Shown: positions 3,701 to 28,959 of the stretch, piece after piece
Layout: every line of letters starts with the position of its first letter
Position numbering within the stretch: position 1 is the stretch's first letter
NCBI GenBank assembly: GCA_013202975.1
Contig: JABMQY010000085.1
Coordinates: 1 to 60,427, forward strand
Length of the DNA stretch: 60,427 nt
Direction: 5' to 3'
From: Candidatus Saganbacteria bacterium
GTDB lineage: Bacteria; Margulisbacteria; WOR-1; XYC2-FULL-46-14
Program-made: the position numbers and the translations under genes
The notes under the pieces: model-generated
Database searches by the model: none
The model's input: the letters and a program-made list of their open reading frames with translations, nothing else
What the model was told of the DNA's origin: nothing

Positions 3701-3755
3701 GGAAATGGCAGGTGAAGAAGCTGCAGCGAAGAAAAAGAAAAAGGGAGGTAAATAA
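738..3755 (+). CDS. Giant (1005 aa) Lys-rich hypothetical protein, no obvious signal peptide; central segment with alternating beta-barrel-like pattern; K/E/A-rich C-terminal tail
   Basis: Long ORF with GGAGG RBS 8 nt upstream. Central region (..FYVDGNINFNFSREQYKNWALGAGARVEAG..FRVKNSWTFGIAARYNLL..) resembles amphipathic beta strands. No family recognised. Confidence 0.7.
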   Translation: MSNPIQICVRADVKKPNPEASVHAEILKLGDLWTLLQMLDKAVVATGSDKVDETLTKLGKTLTSSLGVYGKLSKAVPDWTATRKVEGTIIAMAQRLKGWTSGVIKFPGYLSFAKVSKDPVKIKKWLSRIRYKTKAKEDSKIALWIKNVKIAKLVDIYNRLSKNSDDRPILADLITLVKMRNVAVAASKVIGGIARKNLTGVSDAKKGAYDSFSSVHKTLPQRKFSNKNKRTIFTLLRKYPKIAKNIGFKDIKAGFNPDNWLKNLTGDSDTKYRATRKKIADTIQAIKAKLSKLCLSPKLKKAVDAAINAAKIELVRDKGRELHYAEESDKWYDKADQWMRRNHIMADATLYTGAAFETEDLSSLGKGLDGNSAFYLKTPVTLTWNPTTPQHAWKVGVKAEYEGLHSGKDYKKGEVALFSHFRRTTQKGLPLEARLEVGGIFADSAKSSPIYPSGSAFYVDGNINFNFSREQYKNWALGAGARVEAGEWDQTPYLSVSPRLGVDFRVKNSWTFGIAARYNLLNRDYFTSWDDSPDAGSRYLGSESYHRAGVEVVAAFNRPRYSIAARAFVDASLSGQEVTGGFDVSAQIQLKKNGKHLLDLSTGYQKDDYLGPIRHNVKVLRAEYLYQGHAPLKYGVFAQVNVHKHEGLLNHPDAVATAVVGPLVRFGLAKQFRRPLRELTSVNDQRREAFVADFSRTRRILNTLVGAERVDEKYTNLYAFAFANGLIQSDYKLDLKAAEAQYAKLHPKAKDLPFIEKIEKSDIPIRTYKKANSPVLQGDVVPIALNIGIGKPVTGTTDDALAANKEYRRSTRMMTAGKKKLLKIAYLRNKVANDFKSQGLNEADWKKLIKLPSQASHSAADLVYAISQLSGLNDNKFVLEAKLKELDPKLAAKRSILERDLRAGVVTQPVLDFAVAAIKKNGGSVLSLTSGLHRKHVDTLLALAGKEIKAAPKKKDETKGAEKAKGKGAEEVKDPTKPLDKTAATVEGEMAGEEAAAKKKKKGGK

Positions 3756-3757
3756 TC

Positions 3758-5014
3758 ATGGGAGATGTAACAAAGTTAAGTTTTCAATCAGCAAAAACGA
3801 CAGCAAAGGTGCATGTCAACAGAGGCAAAAAGTCGGGAGGTCTTGTGCTTGGCTGCTCAGATGGAGTTGGGACTCAAATATTAGACGGTGCAGTACCGGG
3901 AGTAAAAAGAGCTAGCAATTTTATCTCCGTTGCATTAGCCGACATCTCAAAGGGCGGAAGAGAGGTAACTGTAAGGACCACGCTAAAGCCGGGTTCAAAA
4001 GCACTTCCTCCTAACGTAAAAAGTATTTCAATTGTTCTCGGAACTAAAAATTCAGCAATCTGTTCAAAAGCTCCAGAGGGAGCGGTAATAGATATTGGGA
4101 CTCCGGCCAAAATGGGCAAGGATCCGGTTGTTCAGACCAAAGATGGCAAGTATGCCGGGATGGGGTTAAAACCTCAGAGTCGAATAGCCAGTAAGGATGG
4201 CTACACTACCATTACCCGCGATTATTATGCCGACAAAAATGGTGTCAAAGTAATAAGATATAGTGAACAGCAGGGATTTTCCACAACCAAGAGCGGAACT
4301 TATAAGGCAAATGATAAAGGACAGATTTTGTGCGAGAGCAATTCGGGATCTGTTCCTTGTAAACTTGCAGATGAAAAATTAGGTCAGCTTGATTCCACTG
4401 TTACCCCGGTTAAATGCGAAACAAAAAACAGCTGTGATCCGACCAGTTTAGTTACCGCAAAAACCTGGTATCAGGTAGAGGTAAATGGTACTTCAAATTC
4501 TACACCAAAATTTGGCCTGTCGCATGTTTTTGGCGATGATCCCAAAAAGTGCCTGAGTGATCCATTCAGATATGTTAAAAATGCGGATGATACCTTAAAA
4601 GAAGTTTCTGATCCGGGACAAGCTGGAAAACCGGTTGCCTGCGGAGTGTTTCCATCTTGTGATCCGGTGAAAAAGACAGATGGCGGTATCGATTCAGGAG
4701 TAAAAAAAGACGCAACAGTAAAACCGGATTCTACTCCGGTTTCGGACGGAGGACCGTATAATCCTCCAACTTATCCGATTTATGTGTCGGCAAAAATTGT
4801 AGACAAGGACGGCCGAGTTCTTTCGGAGATAAAGAAACAGCTTGCTCCGGCGCTTACCGCCACATCAGGAATAAAGATTCCTATTTCTTTGGATAGTTTT
4901 AATAAACCGACTGGGGACATTAAATTAGAATTAACGATTAATACTACTAACATTACCCGCGGAAGATTATTTGGTCTTAATCTGCAGGGTGACTTGGTAT
5001 ACGAAACAAAATAG
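3758..5014 (+). CDS. Hypothetical Cys-containing protein; member 2 of the MG..AKVxVN..G..G..GC N-terminal motif family
   Basis: RBS AAAGGGAGG upstream. N-terminal 40 aa align with ORF 1..726. Many Cys, Pro, Thr; likely extracellular. Confidence 0.6.
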   Translation: MGDVTKLSFQSAKTTAKVHVNRGKKSGGLVLGCSDGVGTQILDGAVPGVKRASNFISVALADISKGGREVTVRTTLKPGSKALPPNVKSISIVLGTKNSAICSKAPEGAVIDIGTPAKMGKDPVVQTKDGKYAGMGLKPQSRIASKDGYTTITRDYYADKNGVKVIRYSEQQGFSTTKSGTYKANDKGQILCESNSGSVPCKLADEKLGQLDSTVTPVKCETKNSCDPTSLVTAKTWYQVEVNGTSNSTPKFGLSHVFGDDPKKCLSDPFRYVKNADDTLKEVSDPGQAGKPVACGVFPSCDPVKKTDGGIDSGVKKDATVKPDSTPVSDGGPYNPPTYPIYVSAKIVDKDGRVLSEIKKQLAPALTATSGIKIPISLDSFNKPTGDIKLELTINTTNITRGRLFGLNLQGDLVYETK

Positions 5015-5025
5015 GAGGAATTGAA

Positions 5026-8000
5026 ATGATAAAGAAAATACTATCGATAGTCTTGCTTCTGGGAGTATTGGCTACGGGTGCTTTGGCTGCGGCGCATCCG
5101 GCACCGGCAGTTACATCTCCGATTATAAGCGGGAGCGGGGCAGAGGGTAATTACTATTACCTGTTTGTTCCTGATCATGCAGCAAATCAGATAAGAGTTA
5201 TTTGGGCCTGGAACAATGAGATTGGCGCAGTTAAGCAGACTTCAAAAGATGTTGCCACTATCCCGGTGTCCGGCGGCGCGGTTTACGGCATGGCGGTAAA
5301 TTCTGACGTAAGCAAACTGTATGTTTCAATTGCAGGCAGCTCACCAAATGTTTCAGTTTATTCAATTAGCAAGACCACTCCAGGTGCTCCAACTTTTACA
5401 TTAGAAAAGAGCATTACCGGAGTCTCGTTCCCTATGGGAATGGCTTTGAGTCCTGATAATAAGTATTTATACGTTGCAGACAGTACAATTGGAAAGGTTC
5501 ATGTTATTGAGACCCAAAATAATAGTATAAAGGGAGCAATTAGCGTTGGCGGGGTCAATCTTACCGATGTTGCGGTAAAGCCCGACAATACACGTTTGGC
5601 AGTAAGCCGAACTTTTGCTTCTGGTGCGGTTTATATTTATGATATAACCAGCGTTCCAACTACTATTCCATCAACCCCGATTTATACTGTAACCTCCGGA
5701 ATGGAGAATCCGACCTATCTTTCATATATGAATGACGGAAGGGTGTTATTTGTAAAGGTTAATCAAACTACCTCTCCATACTACGATGTAATCGGATTAA
5801 ATACAGATGAAGGTATTTATGGAGGTTTTGGGGCCGGTTCGTCTAATGCTTATACCGAAGGAGCTTCGCTCTCTATGGTTTCTGCAGATGAATATCATCC
5901 AAACAACAAGTGGGACGGAATGGCTTTGTCTTTGGATGACAGTTATATATATTTAACCCATTACAGGACCTCAATTGATCCACTTGTAACTACCGATGAT
6001 GGTATTTATGGCTATGCGATTAAGGTAAAGGGAAAACTGGGTATCGGCATGAAATATACCGACTCCGATAAAGATGGAAAAGATGACAGCGGTTTAGGCT
6101 GGCAGATAGTCGGACCGATTGTATATAATGAAGGATTTGATTCGACTGTCGGCTCTCCAAACGGAGGCTATGTCTGGTTCGCCTCTTCTGTAAAAGGGCA
6201 TGTCGAAGGAGATACTCTCGGAACCGGATATGACTGGAAATTAAATACTCCTCCGGGAGCAGTTTCAAACTTGCAGGTTGTGCCTCCGACAGCCGGGACA
6301 AAACTTAAATGGAGTGCTGCTTTAGATGATGGCAACTATACTACAAATTCCGGGAAGAAAATGGCTTATGTTATTGAATATAAAACTGCTGCAAACCTTA
6401 GTTGGCAGACTGATTTAGGTAATGTAGAATCAAATGCTAGTGCGATAGAAAAAGATATTACCACACTTTCCTATGGAACTACTTATTACTTTAGAGTTAA
6501 AGCTTATGATGGTGGTGATGCTAATGATTCTGATCCTACTAAGCGTTGGGATGATGGTAAATTTGGTCCTTATGCGGTAATAGGTCCGGTTACAGCAGGA
6601 AAAGATACACCGGTTATACCTCCGACGACTTCAAACATTATTGATGATATTGAGGGAAAATTGGTTCTTCACACTAAATACTATAAAATTATAGCAAGCG
6701 GAGAGAAGGATCCTACTTTTAAACCCGATACTTCAACCAAGCATGAGGGGTCATATTCAATGGCAACAAACTATGATGCTTCAACTGCCGGTTACAGGGG
6801 GTGGGGTGGTGAGCTGCAGACCAATTTTGACTTTACAAAGTACGATACTATCAACTTCTATATGCAGGGTGATGGTTCTACTACCGGAAATGTCAAGTTG
6901 CAGTTAAAGGATGACGATAACAGTGTTTATGGAACCAGCAGTACGGCTTATGAATTTGCGATAAGTGATTCTTCCGGATTCAAGAAATATTCAATTCCTG
7001 TCAGCGCGTTTAATAAGTCATTTGCTGCAGGTACAAATAGTAAATTAGACACAGATAAGATCGCTGAATATCAGTTTATATTTACTGATAAGAATGCTTC
7101 GAAAGGGAAGATTTATATAGATTATGTTACAGCGTCAAAGGAGTTAGGACCGATTGTAACTTCAATTAAGCGTGATGGAGACACTAAAGGATCTTCTGTA
7201 ACTGTTAGCTGGACCGTTACTCCAAGCGGGAATGTTGATATTTATACAGTAGAAGCTTACTCAACTGATGCTAGCAAATGGAAAGCTGAGAAGACAAACT
7301 ATACCAGCTCTTCCACCGGATCTTATACCGACAAATCAAGCGCGGCGTTAGTCGGCTCTGGTTATCAAAAATACTATAAAGTTGTGGCTACCGGAACCAC
7401 TTTGACTTCTACTTTGTTAAAGAAAGACGTTGTTGGTAAGTTTGATGTCTCTCTAAAGAAGGGGTATAACCTGATTTCTCTTCCTTTTGAGGTAGCCGAT
7501 ACAAGTATTGCAAAGGTGATTGGAGCCCAGCTTACTGCCGGGACTGTTCCACCGCTGGCAGATAAGATTTACAAGTTTAAAGACAGCACCTCTGGCTATG
7601 AGCAGGTCTGGTTAAATTCTACAGATAAAAAGTGGTATGACGCGACCACCATGAAAGCATCGACCATAACAGTTGCTCCGGATGCAGGTTATTGGGTTGA
7701 GTTGGCCTCTGGCACTGCTGTTACAACCCTGGTTGGTAACATATCAGAGAAAGACAGGAGTATTAAAGTTCAAAGCGGATTTAATTTTGTCGGGACTACC
7801 TTTCCGATTGCTGTCACACTTGGTTCTGAGAACTTAAGTGCAGGGGCAAGTATGGGATCTGTTCCGCCTCTGTCAGCTAAGATTTATAATTTTAAAGATT
7901 CGACCTCCGGATTTGAGCAGGTCTGGTTAAAATCAACTGATAAGAAGTGGTATGACGCGACTAGCATGAAGCTTTCTACCATGAAACTTAGTCCGGGAAA

Positions 8001-8067
8001 AGGGTATATTGTTGAAGAGATAAAAGGAAAGAGCTCCTATACATGGCTGTATAAAAAGCCGTATTAA
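5026..8067 (+). CDS. Large secreted multidomain protein (1013 aa): signal peptide, YVTN/NHL-like beta-propeller repeats, fibronectin-III-like domain, CBM-like beta-sandwich (YRGWGG motif), two tandem ~110-aa C-terminal repeats
   Basis: N-term MIKKILSIVLLLGVLATGALAAAHP is a Sec signal. Repeated ..LYVADSTIGKVHVIE.. propeller-like units. FN3-like segment ..TYYFRVKAYDGG... YRGWGGELQ..YIDYVTA segment shared with ORF 9561. Near-identical C-terminal repeats (VPPLADKIYKFKDSTSGYEQVWL.. / VPPLSAKIYNFKDSTSGFEQVWL..). Confidence 0.75.
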   Translation: MIKKILSIVLLLGVLATGALAAAHPAPAVTSPIISGSGAEGNYYYLFVPDHAANQIRVIWAWNNEIGAVKQTSKDVATIPVSGGAVYGMAVNSDVSKLYVSIAGSSPNVSVYSISKTTPGAPTFTLEKSITGVSFPMGMALSPDNKYLYVADSTIGKVHVIETQNNSIKGAISVGGVNLTDVAVKPDNTRLAVSRTFASGAVYIYDITSVPTTIPSTPIYTVTSGMENPTYLSYMNDGRVLFVKVNQTTSPYYDVIGLNTDEGIYGGFGAGSSNAYTEGASLSMVSADEYHPNNKWDGMALSLDDSYIYLTHYRTSIDPLVTTDDGIYGYAIKVKGKLGIGMKYTDSDKDGKDDSGLGWQIVGPIVYNEGFDSTVGSPNGGYVWFASSVKGHVEGDTLGTGYDWKLNTPPGAVSNLQVVPPTAGTKLKWSAALDDGNYTTNSGKKMAYVIEYKTAANLSWQTDLGNVESNASAIEKDITTLSYGTTYYFRVKAYDGGDANDSDPTKRWDDGKFGPYAVIGPVTAGKDTPVIPPTTSNIIDDIEGKLVLHTKYYKIIASGEKDPTFKPDTSTKHEGSYSMATNYDASTAGYRGWGGELQTNFDFTKYDTINFYMQGDGSTTGNVKLQLKDDDNSVYGTSSTAYEFAISDSSGFKKYSIPVSAFNKSFAAGTNSKLDTDKIAEYQFIFTDKNASKGKIYIDYVTASKELGPIVTSIKRDGDTKGSSVTVSWTVTPSGNVDIYTVEAYSTDASKWKAEKTNYTSSSTGSYTDKSSAALVGSGYQKYYKVVATGTTLTSTLLKKDVVGKFDVSLKKGYNLISLPFEVADTSIAKVIGAQLTAGTVPPLADKIYKFKDSTSGYEQVWLNSTDKKWYDATTMKASTITVAPDAGYWVELASGTAVTTLVGNISEKDRSIKVQSGFNFVGTTFPIAVTLGSENLSAGASMGSVPPLSAKIYNFKDSTSGFEQVWLKSTDKKWYDATSMKLSTMKLSPGKGYIVEEIKGKSSYTWLYKKPY

Positions 8068-8085
8068 ATATAGGAGGGGGAAACA

Positions 8086-9492
8086 ATGGGAACTGTAACT
8101 GCTGGTAATAATTTGGATCTGTCTAAATGGCTTGAAACATATAAGCCAAAGGGGCAGAGTGTATACAAGGGCGCAGCTAAAAAGTATTCTTATAGCAAAT
8201 CAGCGTCAAAAGCCAAGGTGGTTGCTAATCGATCAAGAGGGGCTTTGGGGTTGATGTTTGGGTGTGATAGTCGATCAGTTGTTGGCGCTTCTGATGCGCA
8301 GCCTAAGGGGGATGTTGACAGAAAGGACCAGTCTGGTTTTAAAAATTCTTGTCCTATTACTGTTAAGTGGACGAGAACACATGCTGGTGGGCAGGGAAAG
8401 GCTATAGCAGTTGACAGTAGTGGTAATTCTTATGTTACGGGTAAGATGAGAGATGTTGCTTGGAGATGGAACATATGGACAACAAAGTATGATCCAAATG
8501 GAAAGACGCTTTGGACTAAAACTAAGAATAGTGGCAGTACTACTGCAAATCTTGGTGGGAATGGAATAGATATTGATGGGGGTGGTAATGTCTATGTGAG
8601 TGGAACCTTAAATTTAGGTAAGGATGGCGTCTGGGCCGGAAAATATGATACCAATGGAAAGTTGCTTTGGAGCCAAGCTACCCAAATTAATGTGCATGGG
8701 TTTTCGTATACTGATAATGAAACGGATCTGGCGGTAGATAAGGCAGGGAATTTCTCTGTGACTACTAATAAATCGTTTGACATCTGGACAAGTAAGTATG
8801 ATACCAAGGCAAATCTGCTTTGGACACAAACCTATAGTGGTCCCTCTTGGTCCGCTAGTTATAATTCGGGGAAAGCAGTAGCAGTTGATAAAGCTGGGAA
8901 TTCCTATGTTACGGGATATGCATCTGTCTATGGATCCGGTGCTTGGAAAGATTGGAATATTTGGACAAGAAAATATGACCCGAATGGGAAAACACTTTGG
9001 ACAAGTACTCACAACGGTAATTCTCCTAAACCTGATAAACCGGATGATATTGGGTATGGAATAGCAGTAGATAATAGTAATGGGAATGTCTATGTGGTTG
9101 GTACGCACAATGGTGCTATGCACCCTTCTGGTTACGGAGGAGACATTTGGCTTGGAAAATATGATCCCAACGGAAAAACTCTCTGGACTCGGTCTTATGC
9201 TGGTTCTGTCAATAGAAGTGATGAGGGGAGAGGAGTAGCGGTGGATAAGAAGCGCAATGTTTATGTGATTGGTTCTACAACTGTTCCTGACTCTCTCACG
9301 CCACTTAAAAGTAATATTTGGATTAGAAAATACGATTCTAACGGAAAGACTCTCTGCACCCAAACTTATGATAGTGGTAGTGATGACTATGGAACCGGCA
9401 TTGCAGTTGATAAGGCCGGGGATGTTTATGTGACCGGTACTAGTGATCGAAGCATTTTTGTTAGAAAATATAAACAGATTGAGATCAAGTAG
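8086..9492 (+). CDS. SBBP-type beta-propeller repeat protein (468 aa); member 3 of the MG..AKVxVN..G..G..FGC N-terminal motif family
   Basis: At least 6 repeats of (AVD..GN.YVTG...NIWT.KYDPNGKTLWT..Y), typical of the SBBP beta-propeller repeat. N-terminus carries the shared motif ..SKAKVVANRSRGALGLMFGCDSRS. RBS AGGAGGGGG upstream. Confidence 0.7.
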   Translation: MGTVTAGNNLDLSKWLETYKPKGQSVYKGAAKKYSYSKSASKAKVVANRSRGALGLMFGCDSRSVVGASDAQPKGDVDRKDQSGFKNSCPITVKWTRTHAGGQGKAIAVDSSGNSYVTGKMRDVAWRWNIWTTKYDPNGKTLWTKTKNSGSTTANLGGNGIDIDGGGNVYVSGTLNLGKDGVWAGKYDTNGKLLWSQATQINVHGFSYTDNETDLAVDKAGNFSVTTNKSFDIWTSKYDTKANLLWTQTYSGPSWSASYNSGKAVAVDKAGNSYVTGYASVYGSGAWKDWNIWTRKYDPNGKTLWTSTHNGNSPKPDKPDDIGYGIAVDNSNGNVYVVGTHNGAMHPSGYGGDIWLGKYDPNGKTLWTRSYAGSVNRSDEGRGVAVDKKRNVYVIGSTTVPDSLTPLKSNIWIRKYDSNGKTLCTQTYDSGSDDYGTGIAVDKAGDVYVTGTSDRSIFVRKYKQIEIK

Positions 9493-9529
9493 GATTATAA
9501 TTATGAAAAATAGAGTGAAATTTTTAGTA

Positions 9530-9547
9530 AAAATTGACGATATATAT
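9530..9547 (+). promoter_or_regulatory. Recurring motif AAAATTGACGATATATAT (instance 1), upstream of the T9SS-CTD protein gene
   Basis: Near-identical copies at 53857-53874 (+), 35777-35792 (-), 46229-46251 (-, AAAATTAACGATACATATATAT) and a degenerate copy at ~19381-19396. Confidence 0.45.
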
Positions 9548-9560
9548 AAGGAGGGAAGAT

Positions 9561-11480
9561 ATGTTTAAGAAACTGTTGAATAAATTAATTTCGGTTGGGA
9601 TAGTTGCTTCAATTATTTTGTCAGGATTGGTCGTTTTTGCACTGCCGGTTTTGGCCGACAGCTATAACGCCTATCCGGATACCGGCCAGTATGTTTATGA
9701 AAAGTCGGTCGGTGGGACTAAGCTGGCTGCCGGTAATCTTTTACAGATAATTTATGCTAAGGGTTTAAAACCCCTCCCTCCTAAATCAGACGGATCTCCT
9801 GGAGGCGCAGACGCCTTAATTGATTCAACCGCCAGAACAGTCGGAAATATCGGCGGTGCCGGATATTTCTACTACGCTCTAAATGGATTAACTAATGGAA
9901 ACACCGTCTATATCCGTGTCTGGAATGCTTCTACTCTAAAAGCAGCAACCCATTACGGTGATTCTGCTCCTTTAAAAATAGGTAACCCATTACCTAATCC
10001 TCCCTCTGCCTGGGCAATAAAATCTTTTGCTACATCAAAACCAAAGCCTGTTACAGGACCATCTATAAAGAGTGTTTCTCCTTCGTCCGGAAAACAGGGC
10101 GAAACAATTGCTAAAGTTACAATAGAGGGGTCAGGTACAACTTTTACTTCTAATTCAAAGGTAACATTTGGAAGTGGAATAACTTCGGGTACAGTTAAAT
10201 TATTAAACGCATTAAAGCTTGAAGTTTCTAATGTAAAAATTGCTTCGGATGCTGCTCCTGGCAAGAGAGATGTTACTGTCGACTCTGTTATAGGGAAAAA
10301 CATGTTTGAAGTTAAGGCTCCAACAGCTGCAACCTCAATCGTCATCGACGATTATGAGGGAGCTACAAAATCAGTCTCTGGTAGCGTTACCTTCCCTTCA
10401 GGCAAGGTTAGTTCTTATTATGCTATCGGACCGACAAAGTCTAATGAACCAACGGTTTTAAGACAGACTTCAGTTGCCAAAAAAGATACTTATGCAATGA
10501 AGACCAGCTATTCTGCAAACTCAGATCCTAAAACTTCATATAGAGGATGGGGTGGTATTTTGGTTGCAACCCAGGATGCATCTTCTGTTGATACTCTAAC
10601 CTTTTGGTTAAAAGGTGACGGATCAACTAACAAGGTTAAGTTTCAGGTTAAAGATGCCGATGGTACAAACTTTGGTTTGACCGATGCAAATGCTGTCTCT
10701 CTTTCGTCAACAGATTGGAAAGAGGTTAAGATCAGCTCTTTTAAAACTAAAATGTCTCGTGTAGTGGGGACAACTTCGGGTGATGCAACATTAAATTGGA
10801 ACAAAATTGATCAGTATCAGTTTGTTTTTGCCGGAACCGCAGCATCAACAGGGGTTTATATTGACCATGTTGTTGTATCAAAAGGATCAACTATACCACC
10901 AGTAACCGGCAACCCAAAGATCGATAAGATCAGCAAGTCAAAGGGAAAAGCTGGAATTGAAGTTACTATAACCGGTACAGGATTTGGCTCTGCCGGAAAG
11001 ATTGAGTTTGCCGGAACAGACGCAAAAGCCTATATCGAAAGCCTGTCAACCAAACAAATATCAGCCTGGAGCGCGACCGGCATTACCTTTAAAGTTCCTG
11101 ATATCAAAAAAGGTAAAAAACAATTATCGGTAATTCGCACCAGCGACAGCCTGCAGTCAAACGCAGTAAGCTTTGAAGTATCAGCTTCGGCTGCCGCAGC
11201 ATCATATAACTATCCAAACCCGTTTAACCCAAGCGGAGCAGAGACAACTAAGATTGTATTTGATTCCGGAACAAACACAACTGCTACCATCTATATCTTT
11301 GATACCACAGCCCAGATGGTAGAAAAATTAAACTGGAGCGGAACTGCCGGAGCAAACGAGGTTTCATGGAACGGCAAAAACGCCTTTGGCGAAGTACTTG
11401 GAGACGGAGTTTATCTCTATCGTGTAGCAGCAGGATCAAGCATATTAGGTCGAGGAAAAATCCTCATAATTAATAAATAA
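9561..11480 (+). CDS. Secreted protein with CBM-like domain (YRGWGG) and a C-terminal T9SS-type sorting/FlgD-Ig-like domain (TIGR04183/PF13860-like)
   Basis: Preferred start ATG 9561 (RBS AAGGAGGG, then MFKKLLNKLISVGIVASIILSGLVVFALPVLADS signal). The track ORF starts at 9534. The last ~85 aa (..SYNYPNPFNPSG..TTKIVFD..ATIYIFDTTAQMVEKLNW..GANEVSWNGKNAFGEVLGDGVYLYRV..GKILIINK) match the Por-secretion-tail pattern. Mid-region shares the YRGWGG..YIDHVVVSK module with ORF 5026. Confidence 0.75.
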   Translation: MFKKLLNKLISVGIVASIILSGLVVFALPVLADSYNAYPDTGQYVYEKSVGGTKLAAGNLLQIIYAKGLKPLPPKSDGSPGGADALIDSTARTVGNIGGAGYFYYALNGLTNGNTVYIRVWNASTLKAATHYGDSAPLKIGNPLPNPPSAWAIKSFATSKPKPVTGPSIKSVSPSSGKQGETIAKVTIEGSGTTFTSNSKVTFGSGITSGTVKLLNALKLEVSNVKIASDAAPGKRDVTVDSVIGKNMFEVKAPTAATSIVIDDYEGATKSVSGSVTFPSGKVSSYYAIGPTKSNEPTVLRQTSVAKKDTYAMKTSYSANSDPKTSYRGWGGILVATQDASSVDTLTFWLKGDGSTNKVKFQVKDADGTNFGLTDANAVSLSSTDWKEVKISSFKTKMSRVVGTTSGDATLNWNKIDQYQFVFAGTAASTGVYIDHVVVSKGSTIPPVTGNPKIDKISKSKGKAGIEVTITGTGFGSAGKIEFAGTDAKAYIESLSTKQISAWSATGITFKVPDIKKGKKQLSVIRTSDSLQSNAVSFEVSASAAAASYNYPNPFNPSGAETTKIVFDSGTNTTATIYIFDTTAQMVEKLNWSGTAGANEVSWNGKNAFGEVLGDGVYLYRVAAGSSILGRGKILIINK

Positions 11481-11494
11481 GGGAGGAGAAAGTA

Positions 11495-13324
11495 ATGAAG
11501 AAATTTTTAATCTTTAGTTTTATAGTCGTTAGTTGTTTGTTGTTGGTTGTTGGTTTTGCGCAAGCTGACGTTACCGCAACAGATCCGCTGCGGATTGGTG
11601 TGGGCGCAAGGTCGCTTGGTATGGGCCGCGCATTTGTCGCGGTTGCAGAAGATGCTGATACGATTTTTAGCAACCCGGCCGGATTAGGAGAACTCTATTC
11701 TCCCAAAATTACCAGCATGTATACCACCTTAATGAGCGATGTAAATTACATTGTTTTGGGTGGCGCTTATCCTTTTGGAAAAAACAGCGGTATCGGCGCA
11801 GGGATCATTACCTCAAACGTCGGCGGAATATCACTTTATGACGGGACAGGTACCTCTCTTGGAAGTGCCAGCTGGAACAACAGCTTAATCTTTGCCTCTT
11901 ACGGATTAAAACTGCAGGACGAAAGATTAAAAGTCGGTGGAACATTAAAATATTATACTCAGGGCGGTTCTGGAAACGCGACCGTTGAAGCTGCTGCTGG
12001 ATCAGCCATCGGCCTTGATGCGGGTGTCCTTTATTCTGTATCAGATGCGCTGTCATTAGGTGTTGTTGCACAGAATCCATTAGGCACTAAACTTGAATCA
12101 GGAAACAGTGTTTCAAACGCACTGCCTACAGTTATCAAAACCGGTGTTGCTTACCGTCTTCCGATTGGAGCAGAGGGAAAGCTGACCCTGGCAGCCGATT
12201 ACGACCTGATCAGCAAGCGCTCAAATGCTTTCCATGCCGGAGCAGAATATTTTATAACTCCTATGTTTGCATTAAGGGCCGGACTGGACCAGGATCCTGC
12301 GCCGGAAGGTACAGTTACCAATCTTACTGCCGGTTTAGGGCTTAGGGTTAATGGTATTGCCTTTGATTTTGCCTACCATCCATACGGAAATCTGGCCGAA
12401 GATACTACCTATTATTTTTCACTGGGATTTGTCGGAGCCCCGGAACCAAAGAAACTTGATTTAGAAATGGTGCTTAATTCTCCGGTTGATAAATCAAAAG
12501 TTTATACCGACAGTGTAAAGGTAGCCGGAACACTTAAGGGAAAGTTGGACGGCATCAACGTAAAAGTTAACGGGGTTAATGCGACTTTGTCTTCTAAGGG
12601 AGCTTTTGTTGCTTCTGTTCCTATTGATAAGCTGGGTAAAAAACTGATCCATGTTGAAGCAGTTGATAATAAAGGAAGAAAGATCACAGCAGACCGGCGT
12701 GTATTGCGCCTGGTCAGCTTTAAAGATGTTACCGGCGGCTACTGGGCCAAGAACCCGATCGAAAATACCGGAACTGTCGGTTTGATTCAGGGGTATCCTG
12801 ATGGAAGCTTTAGGCCGGACCGAAGCTTGAGCAGGTCAGAGCTGGCAGCAATTTTGGTTAGAGCAAAAGAATATAAACTTCCCGGACGTCCGGTAAAGGT
12901 TTTCAAAGACGTACCGGCAAACCACTGGGCTGCAGGATACGTTGAGATTGCAAAACGTACCGGTTTGATTAAGGGATATCCTGACGGAAGATTTAGACCC
13001 AACAACCGTATCTCTAATTCAGAGGCAGTAACGGTTATGGCCCGATTTGACGGAATGTCAAAGAAATTTGGAAAGACCGCCTTCTCTGATGTATCTAAAA
13101 AACACTGGTCAGCAGGGTATGTAAATGCCGCACAGGAAGCAGGAATGCTCTCATATGTCAGTGGTACGGAGTTTAATCCAGATAAGTCAGTAACCCGGGC
13201 ACAGTCTGTACAGATGCTGGCAAAGACATCAATGGCAACCAAACTGGTTGATCAGCTCTTATCATGGGACAAGGGTTTCCAATTTGAAATAACCAGGCCG
13301 ACTATTAAAGCAAGTCTTTATTAA
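11495..13324 (+). CDS. FadL/PorV-like outer-membrane beta-barrel (N-terminal hatch with NPA motif) fused to three C-terminal SLH domains
   Basis: Signal peptide MKKFLIFSFIVVSCLLLVVGFAQA. ..GARSLGMGRAFVAVAEDADTIFSNPAGL.. matches the FadL/TodX/PorV N-terminal hatch signature (E. coli FadL [25 protein letters not shown]). Three SLH repeats near the C-terminus (FKDV..W...V.....GLI.GYPDG.FRP...). Confidence 0.75.
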   Translation: MKKFLIFSFIVVSCLLLVVGFAQADVTATDPLRIGVGARSLGMGRAFVAVAEDADTIFSNPAGLGELYSPKITSMYTTLMSDVNYIVLGGAYPFGKNSGIGAGIITSNVGGISLYDGTGTSLGSASWNNSLIFASYGLKLQDERLKVGGTLKYYTQGGSGNATVEAAAGSAIGLDAGVLYSVSDALSLGVVAQNPLGTKLESGNSVSNALPTVIKTGVAYRLPIGAEGKLTLAADYDLISKRSNAFHAGAEYFITPMFALRAGLDQDPAPEGTVTNLTAGLGLRVNGIAFDFAYHPYGNLAEDTTYYFSLGFVGAPEPKKLDLEMVLNSPVDKSKVYTDSVKVAGTLKGKLDGINVKVNGVNATLSSKGAFVASVPIDKLGKKLIHVEAVDNKGRKITADRRVLRLVSFKDVTGGYWAKNPIENTGTVGLIQGYPDGSFRPDRSLSRSELAAILVRAKEYKLPGRPVKVFKDVPANHWAAGYVEIAKRTGLIKGYPDGRFRPNNRISNSEAVTVMARFDGMSKKFGKTAFSDVSKKHWSAGYVNAAQEAGMLSYVSGTEFNPDKSVTRAQSVQMLAKTSMATKLVDQLLSWDKGFQFEITRPTIKASLY

Positions 13325-13338
13325 TTAGCTTTTAATAG

Positions 13339-13376
13339 GGGCGAGGTTGCATTGCTGCAATCTCGCCTTTTTTTTT
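13339..13376 (+). terminator. Rho-independent terminator after the surface-protein operon
   Basis: GGCGAGGTTGCA-ttgc-TGCAATCTCGCC stem followed by a run of 9 T. Confidence 0.8.
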
Positions 13377-13389
13377 GTTATAATTAGAT

Positions 13390-13854
13390 ATGGCTGGACA
13401 ATATTATAAAGTTATTATAAATAACCGAAAAGCATTTCACGATTTCTTTTTTCAAGAAACTTTTAAAGCGGGCATAGTTCTTCAGGGTTCAGAAGTAAAG
13501 TCAATTCGTATGGGCAGGGCAAATTTTAAGGACAGTTTTGCCCGACTTGATAAAGATGAGCTTTGGTTATATAATATGCACATAAGCCCTTACGGAAAGA
13601 GCACCGGTGCACAGGTTGTAAGTGACAGGGTAAGAAAGATTTTGGTTACCCGGGGTGAGCTTAAAAAAATAAGCGGAAAAATTGCAGAGAAGGGAATGGT
13701 GGCAATTCCTACCAAACTCTTTTTAGAAGGTAATTGGGTAAAAGTTGAAATAGGTCTTGGAAAGGCAAAAAAGCGATTCGAAAAGAGAGACACAATAATG
13801 CGCAAGGTAGCGCAAAGAGATATAGAGAGGGCACTAAAGGAGACGAACAAGTGA
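13390..13854 (+). CDS. smpB: SsrA-binding protein SmpB
   Basis: ..NRKAFHDFFFQETFKAGIVLQGSEVKSIRMGRANFKDSFARL..LYNMHISPY.. is the typical SmpB signature; located immediately upstream of tmRNA. Confidence 0.9.
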   Translation: MAGQYYKVIINNRKAFHDFFFQETFKAGIVLQGSEVKSIRMGRANFKDSFARLDKDELWLYNMHISPYGKSTGAQVVSDRVRKILVTRGELKKISGKIAEKGMVAIPTKLFLEGNWVKVEIGLGKAKKRFEKRDTIMRKVAQRDIERALKETNK

Positions 13855-14051
13855 CAGTTACGGGTGCAAATAATCATAACAGGGTATTTACCGGTATTGA
13901 CTTAAGAAAGGCCACACAAAAGGCTCTTGAGCAGAAGTTAACCCAATGGAAGGGTCAACCCCTGACTTCGGCCGAGCGGGAGTCAGCCTTAAGGCTGGCC
14001 GGCTTGCTGGCAAAAGAAGAAATTGCCGGTAAACTAGGAGGAACAAGCTAA
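13851..14051 (+). CDS. Small hypothetical protein (66 aa)
   Basis: ORF overlapping smpB stop by 4 nt; no recognisable domain. Confidence 0.3.
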   Translation: MTVTGANNHNRVFTGIDLRKATQKALEQKLTQWKGQPLTSAERESALRLAGLLAKEEIAGKLGGTS

Positions 14052-14491
14052 TGGTTAGAGTGCCAGGAAGGGTTCCTCATGTTCCACATCCCGCAGGTAA
14101 AGGGAAAGCCAGGGGGCAGAAGGTAGGAAAGCAGGCCGGACAATCAGCTAAGCCAAGCCAGATAGGGCGGGGGCCTGAGCTGGATGCCCACGCAATTGCA
14201 ACAGCCCTGGCGGTTGCCGCAAAAGAGGCAAAAGAGAAAGAGCTCTCTTTTGTAGAAATATTACAGCGTGTAATTGATTTAACCGGGATTAAGGATCCGC
14301 AGTCAGCAATGGAAGAGGCCAACCGCCGTCTTCAAAAAGAAATTGATAAAACAATAGATAATATTAAAAATAACAAAGAATTGATGGAAGAGGCCGAGGG
14401 GTGGGAGCAGTTTGCCAACCTGCTTGAGTCTCAGATGTCAGAAGAGCAGATCCAACAGTTCTTTGGGGTTCTTAATAAAGAGTTGCAGTGA
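14051..14491 (+). CDS. Hypothetical protein (146 aa), basic Pro/Gly-rich N-terminus, helical acidic C-terminus
   Basis: ORF with TAATG stop-start overlap with the previous ORF; no recognisable domain. Confidence 0.45.
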   Translation: MVRVPGRVPHVPHPAGKGKARGQKVGKQAGQSAKPSQIGRGPELDAHAIATALAVAAKEAKEKELSFVEILQRVIDLTGIKDPQSAMEEANRRLQKEIDKTIDNIKNNKELMEEAEGWEQFANLLESQMSEEQIQQFFGVLNKELQ

Positions 14492-14647: not shown

Positions 14648-15052
14648 GGGGCAGTAAGGGTATTGACGGGGTGTTTTCGTAGTTCTGGTTGCGAGCCGAG
14701 CATGTCATCTAATCTCGTTAAAATTGGTGGCAAAACATAAATGCAAGAAACATATTTGCACAACTAGTTGACGCTGTAAAGACTGTTTTCAGTCCAGCAG
14801 TTCCTCAGCTAGTGGCTTGCTAATTAAAGCATAGCCAGACTCACCATCTTTTCCGATAGGGGTGGATTCGAGTTTAATTATATCGGATATCCGATCGTTC
14901 GCTTATAGGCTGGTTGGAGAAAATTTATGTAAGCTAGCCTCAAGAAGACTCTGTTTCGGGTCAACCTTGAGGCGAAATAAAGAATAGAAACTACGCTCGT
15001 AGATACTGGGGCTCGTTCATCTCGGACACGGGTTCGACTCCCGTCTGCTCCA
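14648..15052 (+). ncRNA. ssrA: tmRNA (ssrA), one-piece
   Basis: 5' GGGGCAGUAAGGGUAUUGACGGGG resembles the E. coli tmRNA 5' end GGGGCUGAUUCUGGAUUCGACGGG. 3' tRNA-like end GGACACGGGTTCGACTCCCGTCTGCTCCA: T-arm ACGGG/TTCGACT/CCCGT, acceptor 3' strand CTGCTCC pairing with 5' GGGGCAG. Adjacent to smpB. Tag-ORF frame uncertain; candidate resume GCA near 14743 and stop TAA 14821-14823. Confidence 0.8.
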
Positions 15053-15055
15053 CTA

Positions 15056-16174: not shown

Positions 16175-16769
16175 CAAGTATAAGCCCGATTATAATGTAA
16201 TTGTTAAATGGGTTGAGCCGGGAAGCCGGGTATTAGACGTTGGCTGCGGCGAGGGTTCTTTGCTTGAGCGGTTAATTACCGAAAAGAATATTCGCGGAGT
16301 GGGGGTGGACAAGAGTCCCGGTAATCTGAACGTTTGTATAGCCAAGGGCTTAAATGTAATTCAGGTTGATCTGGATATTCAAAAAGGGCTCAGGGATTTT
16401 CCTGACAAGACCTTTGACTATGTAATATTAAATGATACCCTGCAGGCACTCGAGCATCCGCTTCCTGTTTTACTGGAAATGCTGCGTCTGGGAAAAAAAG
16501 TTATTGTCGGTTTTCCTAATTTTGCGCATATTGTTTCGCGCAGTTATCTCTTTTTTCAGGGAAAAATGCCGATGTCAAAGACCCTTCCTTACATGTGGTA
16601 TGACACGCCTAATATCCATTTTATGACAATAAATGATTTTCGAAATCTATGCAAAGAGCAAAAGATAAAAGTTTTAAAAGAGCACTATTTAGGCGAGCGG
16701 TTCTATAATATTCCGGCGTTTTTTGCTAATCTTTTTGCAAGTGAAGCAGTTTATCTGGTAAACTTATAA
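16167..16769 (+). CDS. metW: Methionine biosynthesis protein MetW (methyltransferase-fold)
   Basis: [34 protein letters not shown].. is the typical MetW N-terminus. Internal ATG 16167 chosen over the track start 16107. 8-nt overlap with metX. Confidence 0.8.
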
Positions 16770-18113
16770 TTCCGCCTCCAGTCCAAAACCTATTAAATCT
16801 GAGCGTATTGGCACACTGCTTGCAATAGCAGGATCGGTGTAATTGGTTCCGGATGGAACATCAAAGTTCTTATAAAAAAAGATGATTTTGCTGTTTTGGT
16901 TAAGGTCAAGGATTATATCAAATTTACTGGTTAGTGAAGTTCCCGGATAGTTTTTTCCATATCTGTAATCACCGGATAAAACCAAATCAGCTTCGAGTCT
17001 TGCTCTGATATTTTTTGAAAGAGGATGGGTGTATTCTAATCCAATATCGCATGTTCCGGGTATAATGTATTTATAAAAGCGATTTAGCGGAAGAAAGGAA
17101 TATTTGCTGCTGCTGCGGCTATACTGGCTGCCAATCCTATGGGCAGACAATTTTAAGTTGTTAATTCTGGCTTCTGCTCCAAGATATAGTCCCGAGGTTT
17201 TTCCGGATCCCATACCAAAGTAAAAATCAAGCCTTTCGCTGATAACCCTAATATCTGCTCTTACATCTCGTCCAGCTCCTCTAACATAGTGAAGTGTTAG
17301 TGTTTTATCGGTTTTACCAAGCAGAGGAAGCTTTTTAAAAGAGTAGCCGGCTGTTATAAAAATATCCTGATCTGAAACCAAACCATTTGCAGAATTGCCC
17401 AAAACAGTATAGCCGGCGGAAAGGGTGGTGTGATTTTTTTTCACTTTTGCTGTAATCGATGGTCTTGCGCGGCGAAATACCATTCCGGTTTTTGAAGGAA
17501 CCAATGGGTTGCTGTGAATAATGTCTCCGGCTCCAAAACTGGTGGTAAAATCAAAGTCTAAAAATCTAAAACAGCCGTTGATATCAATAAGTTCATTCGT
17601 GAGGTTTCTGGGAGTACTGGTATAGTATCCACCGTCCAATGTGTCAAAGTTTATCGTAAGTCTGTTTTTTGAGCTGTATTTTTTAGTAAAATTAAGCTTG
17701 AGACGATAATTTGTTATTAAATCGCGCGTATTAGCTTGTGAAAGGAATAAATTGCTTCTGAATGATCCGGATACTGTAGGTAATGCCGGATTTTCGATTT
17801 TGTATTTTTCAACATTGAATTCGGTTTTTAGTTCTGCCAGCAGTTTTTTTATTTTGGGTTGGGGGTTAAACTTGCCGGCTAGTTTGTCAAGAAACCCGGC
17901 TATTTCATAGCGGGTAACCTTTTTTTTTCCTCGAAAAGTGCCGTCCGGAAAGCCATCCGTTACCCCAAGATTTACCAGTTTCAGAACTGCTGCCTCGGCC
18001 CAGTGTTTGTTTTGCATGTCCTTGAATATTTGCTCTGCAGGACAACTAACAACTAACAACTTACAACTTACAACTAAGAATATAACTAAGATAGAAACAT
18101 TTCGAAGTCTCAT
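16764..18113 (-). CDS. SLH-domain outer-membrane porin (OmpM/Slp-like): signal peptide + 1 SLH domain + beta-barrel
   Basis: Signal MRLRNVSILVIFLVVSCKLLVVSC (contains a tandem LLVVSCK duplication). SLH motif ..HWAEAAVLKLVNLGVTDGFPDGTFRGKKKVTRYEIAGFL... Rest is rich in alternating aromatic/Gly/Ser, typical of OM barrels. Confidence 0.7.
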   Translation of the reverse strand: MRLRNVSILVIFLVVSCKLLVVSCPAEQIFKDMQNKHWAEAAVLKLVNLGVTDGFPDGTFRGKKKVTRYEIAGFLDKLAGKFNPQPKIKKLLAELKTEFNVEKYKIENPALPTVSGSFRSNLFLSQANTRDLITNYRLKLNFTKKYSSKNRLTINFDTLDGGYYTSTPRNLTNELIDINGCFRFLDFDFTTSFGAGDIIHSNPLVPSKTGMVFRRARPSITAKVKKNHTTLSAGYTVLGNSANGLVSDQDIFITAGYSFKKLPLLGKTDKTLTLHYVRGAGRDVRADIRVISERLDFYFGMGSGKTSGLYLGAEARINNLKLSAHRIGSQYSRSSSKYSFLPLNRFYKYIIPGTCDIGLEYTHPLSKNIRARLEADLVLSGDYRYGKNYPGTSLTSKFDIILDLNQNSKIIFFYKNFDVPSGTNYTDPAIASSVPIRSDLIGFGLEAEL

Positions 18114-20551: not shown

Positions 20552-21370
20552 ATGAAAATAAATTTTAGTAGCTTTACTGGAGTCAATCAGGTTTTATTGT
20601 CTCAAGCGGGTGGAACGATCAGGAAATTGGTTGATGGTGGAGTTCGTGTCCGTCTGGGGGCGAACGAGCGGCCAATCTCAGCAAAAACAACAGAATTATT
20701 GGATGAGCATTTGCCCGGGGGAGTATATGACTATAGGGATATGGTTTTATCGGTGTTGGCAAGTGCGGATCTGGTTCCGGATGGCACTGATAATCTGATA
20801 AAGATTGGCAACGGAGCGAGATTTGGAGAAAGCGGGGCTCTTGAAATGGACCAGGCTGTCATGGCTTTTCATAGTTTAGAATATCCCGAATGGGATAGCC
20901 TGGATGCTGTCCACAAAGATTTTATTACTAATCCTGAAAACGGAAAAGTTCGTTTATCATGGTTTTTGGGGGATATGGCACAGCAGGAGATCCCTCTTTT
21001 ACCAGACATTACTACGGATCAGGAAGAAGCTTCGAGGCTGATGTCTATGGGGAGGGTCTGGATGCCGGTGGGATTAACAAGTACTTTTTTTCGGGATAGA
21101 CAGGTTAAAGTAATGGGACTCAGGTTAAAGGGTGTATATACCGGTGTATCAATATTTGGTTCTTTTTGGGGAACACATTTGCAAGGCCTTAATTTAAAAG
21201 CGGGACTTCCTTTTGGGAGTATGCGCTATAAAGTTGAAGCGCTGGATTTACAGGTAACCGGCCATGGAATAAATATCCAAACTAGTCCGGAGGAAGGGCA
21301 GGGGATTCTTAATACGGTGTTAGATTTGGCAGGGATTGAATCGATATGGGTGACGCGAAAAACAGACTAA
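20552..21370 (+). CDS. Hypothetical protein (272 aa)
   Basis: ORF with AGGAGGG RBS upstream; no recognised domain. Confidence 0.55.
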   Translation: MKINFSSFTGVNQVLLSQAGGTIRKLVDGGVRVRLGANERPISAKTTELLDEHLPGGVYDYRDMVLSVLASADLVPDGTDNLIKIGNGARFGESGALEMDQAVMAFHSLEYPEWDSLDAVHKDFITNPENGKVRLSWFLGDMAQQEIPLLPDITTDQEEASRLMSMGRVWMPVGLTSTFFRDRQVKVMGLRLKGVYTGVSIFGSFWGTHLQGLNLKAGLPFGSMRYKVEALDLQVTGHGINIQTSPEEGQGILNTVLDLAGIESIWVTRKTD

Positions 21371-24108: not shown

Positions 24109-24192
24109 ACTTGCTATGATAATAGCAAATGCCTCTTGCAGAGTCAATAAATCAAATGTTAGAATGGCTAGAACTTAACCCTGGAGGTAATT

Positions 24193-26625: not shown

Positions 26626-27366
26626 ATGGCTGCCGGCACTTCTTCATATTGGCGCAAGCTTCTGGGGCTGGATCAGCCGGCAGATAAAGATGTTTTTAAA
26701 AAGATACATTCTCCGCATGAAGTATTGAGACCCTTATTTTATTTTCTTTTTGGTCTTCTCTCCCGGCTGCTTTTTCCAATCAAGGTTTATGGTATTGAAA
26801 ATATTCCAAAGCCTCCCTATATAATTTCTCCAAATCACACCAGTGCTTTGGATTTTGCAGTTGTTGCTTTGTGTATTGGGCCAAAGCATAGAAAACAGCT
26901 TTATCCCCTGGCAAGCAAATTCTTCTACGATCATCTGTTCCCAAGGTTTTTTATGCGTACAGCTGCAAATATAGTAAGGATTGATACTGACCAGGCCTTT
27001 TTTCCTGCTTTGAGGGAAGCAGGATCTATTTTACGGTTAGGCCGGTCGGTTTGTATCTATCCCGAGGGCACTCGATCACAAACAGGAGAGCTCTTACCCT
27101 TTAAGGTAGGGGTGGGGATTTTGGCGGTAGAGGCTAATGTTCCGATTGTTCCGGTTTATACCAAAGGGATTTATGAGATTTTGCCGAGCGGTGCGCTAAT
27201 GTTTCGACCTGGTAAAATTAGTATCCATTTTGGTAAGCCGATTGATCCTAAACCTTATATTGGGAAGATTAAAACTACGCAGGCATATGATGTTTATAAA
27301 GAGATTACGGATAATCTTAGGGCTGAGATTCTAAAACTTCTCGATAAAGCTCGACATATTTATTAG
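26626..27366 (+). CDS. 1-acyl-sn-glycerol-3-phosphate (lysophospholipid) acyltransferase, PlsC family
   Basis: HX4D motif (..ISPNHTSALDFAVV..) and ..YPEGTRS.. motif. Confidence 0.8.
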   Translation: MAAGTSSYWRKLLGLDQPADKDVFKKIHSPHEVLRPLFYFLFGLLSRLLFPIKVYGIENIPKPPYIISPNHTSALDFAVVALCIGPKHRKQLYPLASKFFYDHLFPRFFMRTAANIVRIDTDQAFFPALREAGSILRLGRSVCIYPEGTRSQTGELLPFKVGVGILAVEANVPIVPVYTKGIYEILPSGALMFRPGKISIHFGKPIDPKPYIGKIKTTQAYDVYKEITDNLRAEILKLLDKARHIY

Positions 27367-28852: not shown

Positions 28853-28959
28853 TTTTGCTCCCTTTTACCACCTTTTTATCGGATATATTTTTGAGAAATT
28901 TCACTAAATTTTAAAATTTTCCCGCCCTGCGGGATCCCGCCCCGCGGGACAGTCTATTT

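Follow-up and report, generated by a model that had tools for sequence, protein, structure and literature searches.

A cognate gene pair of a type IX-type C-terminal domain protein and an SLH-fused PorV/PorQ-family barrel in Candidatus Saganbacteria

Do two neighbouring genes of Candidatus Saganbacteria, whose products resemble type IX secretion system (T9SS) cargo and carrier, belong to a sorting route, or do they form a unit of a different kind? The genes lie on a contig of 60,427 bp (the window, by which we mean the whole stretch of DNA analysed), at the 3' end of a long cluster of genes on the same strand. Their host belongs to a Terrabacteria lineage that is a sibling of Cyanobacteria. 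The first gene encodes a protein ending in a C-terminal domain (CTD) of T9SS type, the second an outer-membrane beta-barrel that continues into three SLH domains. A first-pass annotation had described both open reading frames (ORFs) in this way and had read the barrel as a PorV-like shuttle standing next to its likely cargo, in a T9SS-like sorting route. The core observation, a CTD gene followed by an SLH-fused barrel gene, was borne out with four corrections; the interpretation as a whole is partly supported. According to the literature, T9SS itself is confined to Bacteroidota (PMC12618676, PMC7463736).

The pair and its parts, with the evidence for each, are the following.

9561 to 11480, forward strand: gene of the CTD-bearing surface protein, 639 amino acids (aa) (ORF, Shine-Dalgarno sequence, domain scans)
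11196 to 11477, forward strand: the CTD, about 94 aa, a seven-stranded beta-sandwich ending in ...GRGKILIINK at the extreme C-terminus (TIGR04183, AlphaFold2 model, PDB matches)
11495 to 13324, forward strand: gene of the PorV/PorQ-family barrel with Ig-like spacer and three SLH domains, 609 aa (NF033709, PF00395, AlphaFold2 model)
11567 to 12430, forward strand: N-terminal plug (residues 25-66) and 14-stranded beta-barrel (residues 71-312) (model, Foldseek, profile)
12464 to 12709, forward strand: Ig-like beta-sandwich spacer, residues 324-405, putatively periplasmic (PF09136, model)
12722 to 13264, forward strand: three SLH domains, residues about 410-590 (PF00395 three times, structural match, motifs)
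13337 to 13370, forward strand: strong intrinsic terminator with a 15-bp stem and a T-run, which closes the operon

For the CTD gene, ATG at 9561 is preferred over TTG at 9534 because a strong Shine-Dalgarno sequence, AAGGAGG, lies 7 nt ahead of it. By inspection, a Sec signal peptide occupies residues 1-32 of the 639-aa product (MFKKLL...PVLA/D); an Ig-like repeat (166-241), a CBM_11 domain (253-425), a TIG domain (452-539) and the CTD (546-639) make up the rest. This CTD belongs to TIGR04183, the family of T9SS type A sorting domains, by score, fold and position. It matches the model with 27.6 bits, above the cutoff of 23, over residues 551-635 of 639, and its AlphaFold2 model (pLDDT 92) is a sandwich of seven strands whose best fold matches in the PDB are the CTDs of PorZ (5m11) and PorU (6za2), with FlgD next. 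When the CTD profile was compared with the PDB, the CTD of PorU (residues 1058-1154 of 1156) was found with an E value of 4.6e-9, FlgD with 5.7e-6 and PorZ with 4.9e-5, and the alignment with PorU reaches the very C-terminus of that protein. A near-invariant lysine is kept in the last CTD strand (GKGKILVIKK). The tail is thus a T9SS-type CTD, as the first-pass annotation had it, and not merely a generic FlgD-like Ig fold: the PorU/PorZ CTDs outscore FlgD by profile and by fold, though FlgD is still a near neighbour. The similarity to PorU ends with the CTD. The PorU model NF033707 gave 36.7 bits against a cutoff of 420, confined to PorU's own CTD, and no homolog of the catalytic part of PorU was found among the window ORFs scanned.

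The barrel gene begins 14 nt past the CTD gene and its product also carries a signal peptide. It matches the PorV/PorQ family model NF033709 with 152 bits (cutoff 90), residues 27-312 covering positions 2-324 of the 326 in the model, and the 609-aa protein is already named 'PorV/PorQ family protein' by NCBI. The equivalog models are not reached, neither that of PorV (NF033710, 75.1 bits vs 250) nor that of PorQ (NF033711, 82.5 vs 220). The barrel is therefore a member of the PorV/PorQ family by the NCBI model, yet neither PorV nor PorQ proper. Other barrel families fit less well: PF03349 (FadL) matches residues 42-84 only, with 21.5 bits against a cutoff of 29.7, TIGR03519 (PorP/SprF) gives 17.1 bits against 90.55, and a precomputed PF11751 match is present on few of the orthologs. 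A structure model built from 98 homologs (AlphaFold2, mean pLDDT 91) shows the plug and 14 strands listed above and, beyond residue 312, an all-beta spacer followed by three SLH repeats. PorV is its closest structure. The top Foldseek matches are PorV chains of the Flavobacterium johnsoniae T9SS translocon, 8gl6_F (E 1e-13) and 6h3i_F, and TM-scores normalised to the target are 0.67-0.70 for PorV chains vs 0.44-0.56 for FadL, TodX and TbuX. In a profile search of the PDB, PorV 6h3i_F (E 7.8e-11) was the sole outer-membrane barrel matched. Of the earlier label 'FadL/PorV-like', the PorV/PorQ half is upheld by score and best fold, while the FadL half falls below its cutoff.

Between barrel and SLH domains lies a part that the earlier description of the architecture did not include, an Ig-like spacer (PF09136 Glucodextran_B, 37.3 bits, residues 325-403). 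The three C-terminal SLH domains themselves were correctly named: the tail has three PF00395 matches (113.6 bits), it can be overlaid on Sap and SpaA SLH trimers whose structures include pyruvylated secondary cell-wall polymer (target TM-score 0.75-0.86), and the three domains contain the TRAE-like motifs SRSE, SNSE and TRAQ. By analogy with these trimers, the tail would attach, in the periplasm, to a secondary cell-wall polymer that is linked to peptidoglycan.

Is the neighbourhood of the two genes accidental? More than 200 homologs of the barrel with its SLH tail were found, and all that carry an organism name belong to Margulisiibacteriota, Saganbacteria or WOR-1, except one labelled 'bacterium'. 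A scan of one genome per GTDB species, seeded on the SLH motif, returned 80 loci, mostly SLH-only proteins of Bacillota and other phyla; the full-length relatives among them (L005-L014 only) again come from Margulisiibacteriota and Saganbacteria, except one 'uncultured bacterium'. After the barrel genes had been collapsed at 95% identity, 44 non-redundant clusters were left, and in 41 of these a CTD-ending gene stands directly upstream, at a median distance of 1 nt. Stop and start codons overlap in 17 of the 41 pairs. The reverse approach, a metagenome scan seeded with an alignment of eight CTD sequences and hence independent of the barrel, gave the same picture: wherever downstream sequence could be read, the next gene was a barrel gene (31 of 31 loci), and some of the loci contain tandem CTD-barrel-CTD-barrel arrays. 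In the 708 kb sampled, all CTD genes with a readable flank adjoin a barrel gene. The CTD-barrel pair is a phylum-wide cognate unit, often translationally coupled, and the adjacency first noticed in a single contig is conserved throughout.

The two sides of the pair are not equally constant. The CTD stands at the extreme C-terminus in all 57 copies across related loci, while the proteins bearing it span 109-2210 aa (complete ORFs). Elsewhere the passenger is a subtilisin-like protease, a very large adhesin-like protein, or there is none at all. Clustering of the neighbouring ORFs across the sampled loci gave two recurring families only, the barrels and large CBM/TIG surface proteins.

Mini-proteins of about 109-122 aa, consisting of signal peptide and CTD only, were seen in L109 (3720-4088), L114 (1-333), L119 (7603-7932) and in P0129-P0140. 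The genes for those of L109, L114 and L119 immediately precede a barrel gene in each case. It may be that the CTD is a structural subunit of the barrel complex, more than a tag.

We next compared how CTD, barrel and tail diverge. Over 30 pairs, CTD identity follows barrel identity with a Spearman coefficient of 0.79; the partial correlation of CTD with barrel, controlling for the SLH tail, is 0.47, and that of CTD with SLH tail, controlling for the barrel, is 0.09, values which are supportive and not decisive since pairwise identities are not independent. A direct comparison is offered by two loci (L096 and L097, about 5200-14250), in each of which the whole CTD-barrel-SLH pair is tandemly duplicated within one genome. 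Between the tandem paralogs, CTDs share 40-46% identity and barrels 52-53%, while the SLH tails share about 75%. Between the two genomes, orthologous pairs share 77-82% in the CTD and 85-90% in the barrel. Divergence of CTD and barrel combined with conservation of the SLH part is what would be expected if each CTD contacts its own barrel and all tails share one wall ligand.

The tail, in turn, is exchangeable. An exhaustive search with the barrel part only retrieved 9,938 representatives with E <= 1e-3, of which 167 reach E <= 1e-30. Among the best 150 representatives, 76 carry SLH domains, 28 consist of the barrel only, 3 have just the Ig-like spacer and 43 end in other tails; ten of the latter were scanned, giving four LysM and three SPOR domains. 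LysM and SPOR are peptidoglycan-binding modules. Members with an organism name once more belong to Margulisiibacteriota or Saganbacteria. All non-SLH variants examined retain the CTD gene directly upstream, as in these loci.

L118: protein with Peptidase_S8, TIG and CTD, followed by a barrel extended by nothing but the Ig-like spacer
L119: CTD-only protein of 109 aa, followed by a barrel alone
L120: CTD protein of 283 aa, followed by a barrel with SPOR
L120, second pair, 5403-10711: CTD protein of 1289 aa, followed by a barrel with TPR, stop and start codons overlapping
L121 and L122: CTD proteins of 276 aa, followed by barrels with LysM

In the second pair of L120, the 1289-aa protein contains Big_5 and weak FlgD_ig and Por_Secre_tail matches, and the TPR repeats of its barrel occupy the place of the wall-binding domain. 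Time and again, then, the C-terminal end of this barrel has received one or another of several functionally equivalent wall-binding domains, which speaks for a periplasmic location of that end and for wall attachment as a selected function. Since the pair persists also in barrel-only forms, the partner evidently relates to the barrel proper.

We have seen so far that the pair resembles T9SS components and is strictly kept together. Whether it works as part of a T9SS is another matter. No T9SS core family (PorK/L/M/N, SprA/Sov, PorT, PorU, PorW) was detected by NCBIfam models in the approximately 46 window ORFs scanned, and no candidate for a translocon, sortase or motor recurs near the sampled related loci. 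Nor did the literature yield a paper that connects T9SS parts to Margulisbacteria or to Saganbacteria, or SLH domains to PorV; envelope and secretion are absent from the text of the main genomic paper on these lineages. The proposal of a shuttle in a T9SS-like sorting route also conflicts with the arrangement of the genes, there being one CTD gene per barrel gene and no carrier of many scattered cargos. A CTD profile search of a 5.8-billion-protein collection returned 24 proteins, all of 70-170 aa, and says little on the number of CTDs per genome. Moreover, a barrel stapled by three SLH domains could hardly travel from translocon to attachment site.

We consider it moderately probable that the two proteins form a static complex, combining surface display with a staple between outer membrane and wall, and not a mobile shuttle. 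The product of the first gene, exported by Sec, would bring a variable passenger joined to a conserved CTD homologous to those of T9SS type A. The product of the second would sit in the outer membrane as a 14-stranded PorV/PorQ-family barrel whose C-terminus continues into the periplasm as Ig-like spacer and SLH domains. In Bacteroidota, PorV is contacted by type A CTDs on its extracellular loops, and a highly conserved CTD lysine mediates part of this binding (PMC10994853). By this analogy the CTD, probably uncleaved, would dock non-covalently on the extracellular loops of its own barrel and so hold the passenger at the cell surface, while the SLH domains would bind the peptidoglycan-linked secondary cell-wall polymer. 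The complex would then display a surface protein and at the same time staple the outer membrane to the wall. That such a pair operates as an autonomous system of display and tethering, devoid of SprA, PorKLMN motor and sortase, is a further claim, which we regard as possible but doubtful.

Several points weigh against the static complex. The CTD stays below the Pfam thresholds (PF13860 FlgD_ig, 23.7 vs 27; PF18962 Por_Secre_tail, 15.5 vs 27), and FlgD is a close second to it by fold. The periplasmic position of the tail is deduced from the even number of strands and from FadL/PorV topology. In three of the 44 barrel clusters our script found no CTD gene directly upstream, although one of the three has such a gene 243 nt away. 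The peptide pattern of the CTD-seeded search is specific to this CTD subfamily, so that divergent CTDs would escape it; all related sequences come from metagenomes or metagenome-assembled genomes of uncultured organisms; and the co-divergence suffers from the dependence of identities mentioned above. The contact between CTD and barrel is a prediction from homology, gene pairing and co-divergence. A search for a translocon found nothing like SprA in the window or in the 8-10 kb that surround each of the related loci. Finally, a static complex leaves the passage of folded passengers of up to about 2200 aa over the outer membrane unexplained.

It is this passage over the outer membrane that gives the alternatives their appeal. 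Saganbacteria might possess a complete T9SS, with SprA/Sov and PorKLMN-like genes elsewhere in the genome and the barrel as a PorV-type carrier of CTD cargo. Folded multi-domain passengers do need a route across the membrane, both the PorV/PorQ family and TIGR04183 are matched above cutoff, the structures matched best are PorV and the CTDs of PorU and PorZ, and even the specialised PorP/SprF carriers of Bacteroidota still need SprA (PMC12618676). We nevertheless judge a complete T9SS quite unlikely, as the scanned window ORFs contain no core family, the sampled loci share only barrels and surface proteins as conserved neighbours, the system is described as Bacteroidota-exclusive (PMC12618676, PMC7463736) and no paper joins Margulisbacteria to it. 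The 1:1 pairing is unlike PorV, one carrier for many cargos, and a wall-stapled barrel would be a poor fit to a carrier that leaves the translocon. Alternatively, the barrel, perhaps together with the beta-barrel assembly machinery, could itself bring its partner to the surface in the style of two-partner secretion or of autotransporters, whereupon the CTD docks and the barrel stays as anchor. The strict 1:1 pairing, in which stop and start codons often overlap, points to co-translation and co-assembly, no further conserved component is found nearby, the 109-aa CTD-only partners make the CTD behave as a subunit of the barrel complex, and the pair is seen with all barrel tail types examined. 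Such self-sufficient export is still unlikely: the barrel, as modelled, counts no more than 14 strands and is blocked by its N-terminal plug, passengers of up to about 2200 aa contain numerous folded beta-domains, and neither an energy source nor a POTRA-like domain is in sight. We know of no FadL/PorV-family barrel that conducts polypeptides.

Very improbable, in our view, is the most ordinary explanation, a FadL-type hydrophobic channel that tethers the outer membrane and happens to lie beside an unrelated protein with a generic FlgD-like Ig domain. FadL, TodX and TbuX are significant structural matches of the barrel, PF03349 gives its weak match, and FlgD comes second for the CTD. But PorV is ahead of FadL by sequence and structure, PF03349 remains below cutoff, and PorU's CTD outscores FlgD in an alignment running to the C-terminal end of PorU; on these comparative scores the readings as FadL transporter and as generic FlgD-Ig domain were both rejected. 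Near-universal adjacency and co-divergence of CTD and barrel, too, go beyond chance.

The static complex finds partial counterparts among known systems, each sharing some of its traits. In Bacteroidota, PorU and PorZ keep uncleaved CTDs, and the barrel PorQ anchors PorZ at the surface (PMC10947112). PorV was proposed as the outer-membrane anchor of PorU, and porU lies directly upstream of porV, with a gap of 75 bp in Porphyromonas gingivalis and as Fjoh_1556 and Fjoh_1555 in F. johnsoniae (PMC5445135). As in PorU-PorV, a CTD gene here precedes the gene of its barrel; as in PorU-PorV and PorZ-PorQ, a surface protein would keep its CTD and be held by a 14-stranded PorV/PorQ-family barrel, and these systems provide both the closest CTDs and the closest barrel. 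They differ in that the Saganbacteria pair has neither a sortase nor a beta-propeller passenger of the PorU/PorZ kind, its passengers are variable, several paralogous pairs may occur per genome (see the tandems of L096 and L097 and the second pair of L120), its barrel carries fused wall-binding domains and the host is one of the Terrabacteria. Unlike in the T9SS of Bacteroidota, SprA, PorKLMN and the machinery for attachment to A-type lipopolysaccharide were not found in the window and the sampled loci.

Genes of type B CTD proteins are followed by their own cognate porP/sprF gene (PMC12618676), and PorP, the OmpA_C-like peptidoglycan binder PorE and the uncleaved cargo PG1035 form a complex in which PorE bridges the barrel to peptidoglycan through its OmpA_C-like domain (PMC9143113). 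Type B cargo thereby stays anchored to its barrel with the CTD uncleaved, much as is proposed for the Saganbacteria pair. The likeness lies further in a cargo gene directly ahead of its own barrel gene and in the tail, as SLH, LysM or SPOR domains would do the wall-linking job of PorE inside the barrel polypeptide. The CTD of Saganbacteria, however, is type A-like (TIGR04183) and not type B (TIGR04131), its barrel is of PorV/PorQ type, wall binding is fused to the barrel instead of residing in a separate lipoprotein, and the PorP/SprF pairs of Bacteroidota depend on the SprA translocon. In the Saganbacteria module, a CTD resembling those of type A and a PorV/PorQ-like barrel come together with the gene order and 1:1 specificity of the PorU-PorV and type B-PorP pairs, and the wall link that PorE provides is fused into the barrel.

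OmpM/Slp proteins likewise join an outer-membrane beta-barrel to periplasmic SLH and thereby tie the outer membrane to the wall. In OmpM, one N-terminal SLH domain is followed by a porin barrel, whereas here a plugged barrel of PorV/FadL type, a spacer and three C-terminal SLH domains follow each other, and the barrel has a dedicated CTD partner. With reversed domain order and another barrel class, the barrel protein is not OmpM. FadL and TodX, finally, share with it 14 strands, an N-terminal plug, an NPA-containing N-terminal motif and significant structural similarity; they are less similar than PorV in structure and sequence, and FadL has neither a wall-binding tail nor a cognate CTD partner.

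Four further genes of the window are the following.

5026 to 8067, forward strand: a frequent third partner, a Sec-exported surface protein of 1013 aa with beta-propeller, fn3 and CBM_11 (domain scans, homology)
8086 to 9492, forward strand: SBBP beta-propeller protein gene between the third partner and the CTD gene, in the operon (PF06739, 95 bits)
16764 to 18113, reverse strand: protein with an N-terminal SLH domain and then a non-SLH region, not part of the pair (SLH, 41 bits, residues 30-70)
22876 to 24147, reverse strand: distant PorV/FadL-like barrel paralog, without SLH and without CTD partner (NF033709, 43.7 bits vs 90)

The last 300 or so residues of the third partner (716-1013, nt 7171-8064) form an internally duplicated module that matches no Pfam or NCBIfam model. 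It recurs in about a dozen distinct loci, always at the extreme C-terminus, and the gene bearing it lies in those loci directly upstream of the CTD gene. Beside the CTD, this module could be another type of C-terminal domain for anchoring or sorting. The gene at 8086-9492 has no homolog in the related loci; a LipL53-family model matches its product with 122 bits, below the cutoff of 400.

The protein of 16764-18113, which had been called an SLH-porin, indeed has a single N-terminal SLH domain, as befits an OmpM-like protein. Among solved structures, this SLH domain finds its counterparts at the N-terminus of the SLH-domain proteins 8bys and 8bym (428-435 aa) and of the S-layer protein SlpA (7zgx). 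Judged from its sequence, it is probably an OmpM-like outer-membrane tether that marks this envelope type; OmpM homologs occur in Saganbacteria and Margulisbacteria (bioRxiv 10.1101/2021.05.31.446380). For the supposed second FadL/PorV-like paralog at 22876-24147, a weak relationship holds (43.7 bits, below the family cutoff, and weak BLAST matches to barrel homologs), but it lacks a CTD partner, the window containing one CTD only. It carries a low-complexity insert rich in Lys, Ala and Glu at about residues 140-190 and is abutted downstream, on the same strand, by a gene for a 502-aa protein with metallo-beta-lactamase fold and TPR (21367-22875).

The genes upstream at 1-726, 738-3755 and 3758-5014 were considered as accessory components and rejected, having no homologs in any related locus. 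The products of 1-726, 3758-5014 and 8086-9492 share an uncommon N-terminal motif, AKVxVN[KR]..G..G[LIV]x[FL]GC[SD], e.g. KAKVVANRSRGALGLMFGC; two of them were picked up by a stricter regular expression, and the remaining one was recognised by eye. It resembles a lipobox cysteine after a very short, weakly hydrophobic segment, preceded in two cases by a long polar leader, and may be an atypical lipoprotein signal or the result of a mis-called start. The 1005-aa ORF at 738-3755 has no family match and no obvious signal peptide. Its ends are Lys-rich and helical and its centre is beta-rich, with a faint match (16.6 bits) to the model of the Treponema TP0733-family outer-membrane barrel.

Behind the terminator at 13337-13370 come smpB and the gene of transfer-messenger RNA (14648-15055, forward strand), the latter confirmed by Rfam with 149 bits. 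The tag peptide given by ARAGORN, ARNIFAQLVDAVKTVFSPAVPQLVAC, is atypically long and lacks the customary hydrophobic, Ala-rich ending; its reading frame may be mis-set. Farther away, on the reverse strand, the gene of a 1459-aa protein that joins PPDK_N to PEP-utilizer mobile domains lies between those of two GlgA (glycogen/starch synthase) paralogs (27317-34816). The combination resembles a glucan, water dikinase-like enzyme, which to our knowledge would be unusual among bacteria. The same strand encodes a signal peptidase I of archaeal/SipW type (38085-38555) and larC and larB of the nickel-pincer cofactor (39069-40851).

What does the pair mean for the biology of these bacteria? That automatic annotation labels both proteins and that OmpM homologs occur in these lineages was already known. 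New are cognate pairs of CTD and PorV/PorQ barrel outside Bacteroidota, fused to interchangeable wall-binding modules. T9SS parts are usually seen as a speciality of Bacteroidota; their homologs here form a tight gene pair that has expanded in a Terrabacteria phylum. For metagenome-assembled genomes this is a warning: the labels 'PorV/PorQ family' and 'T9SS type A sorting domain' are, taken alone, no proof of a T9SS. If the pair does work with neither translocon nor motor, it would provide a minimal, testable model of recognition between CTD and barrel. Recognition of CTDs by PorV/PorQ barrels could then operate without T9SS and might predate it, and the T9SS of Bacteroidota could have arisen by addition of translocon and motor to anchor pairs. 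For the diderm Terrabacteria, it would mean a second class of tether between outer membrane and wall beside OmpM, uniting wall, outer membrane and surface protein in one complex.

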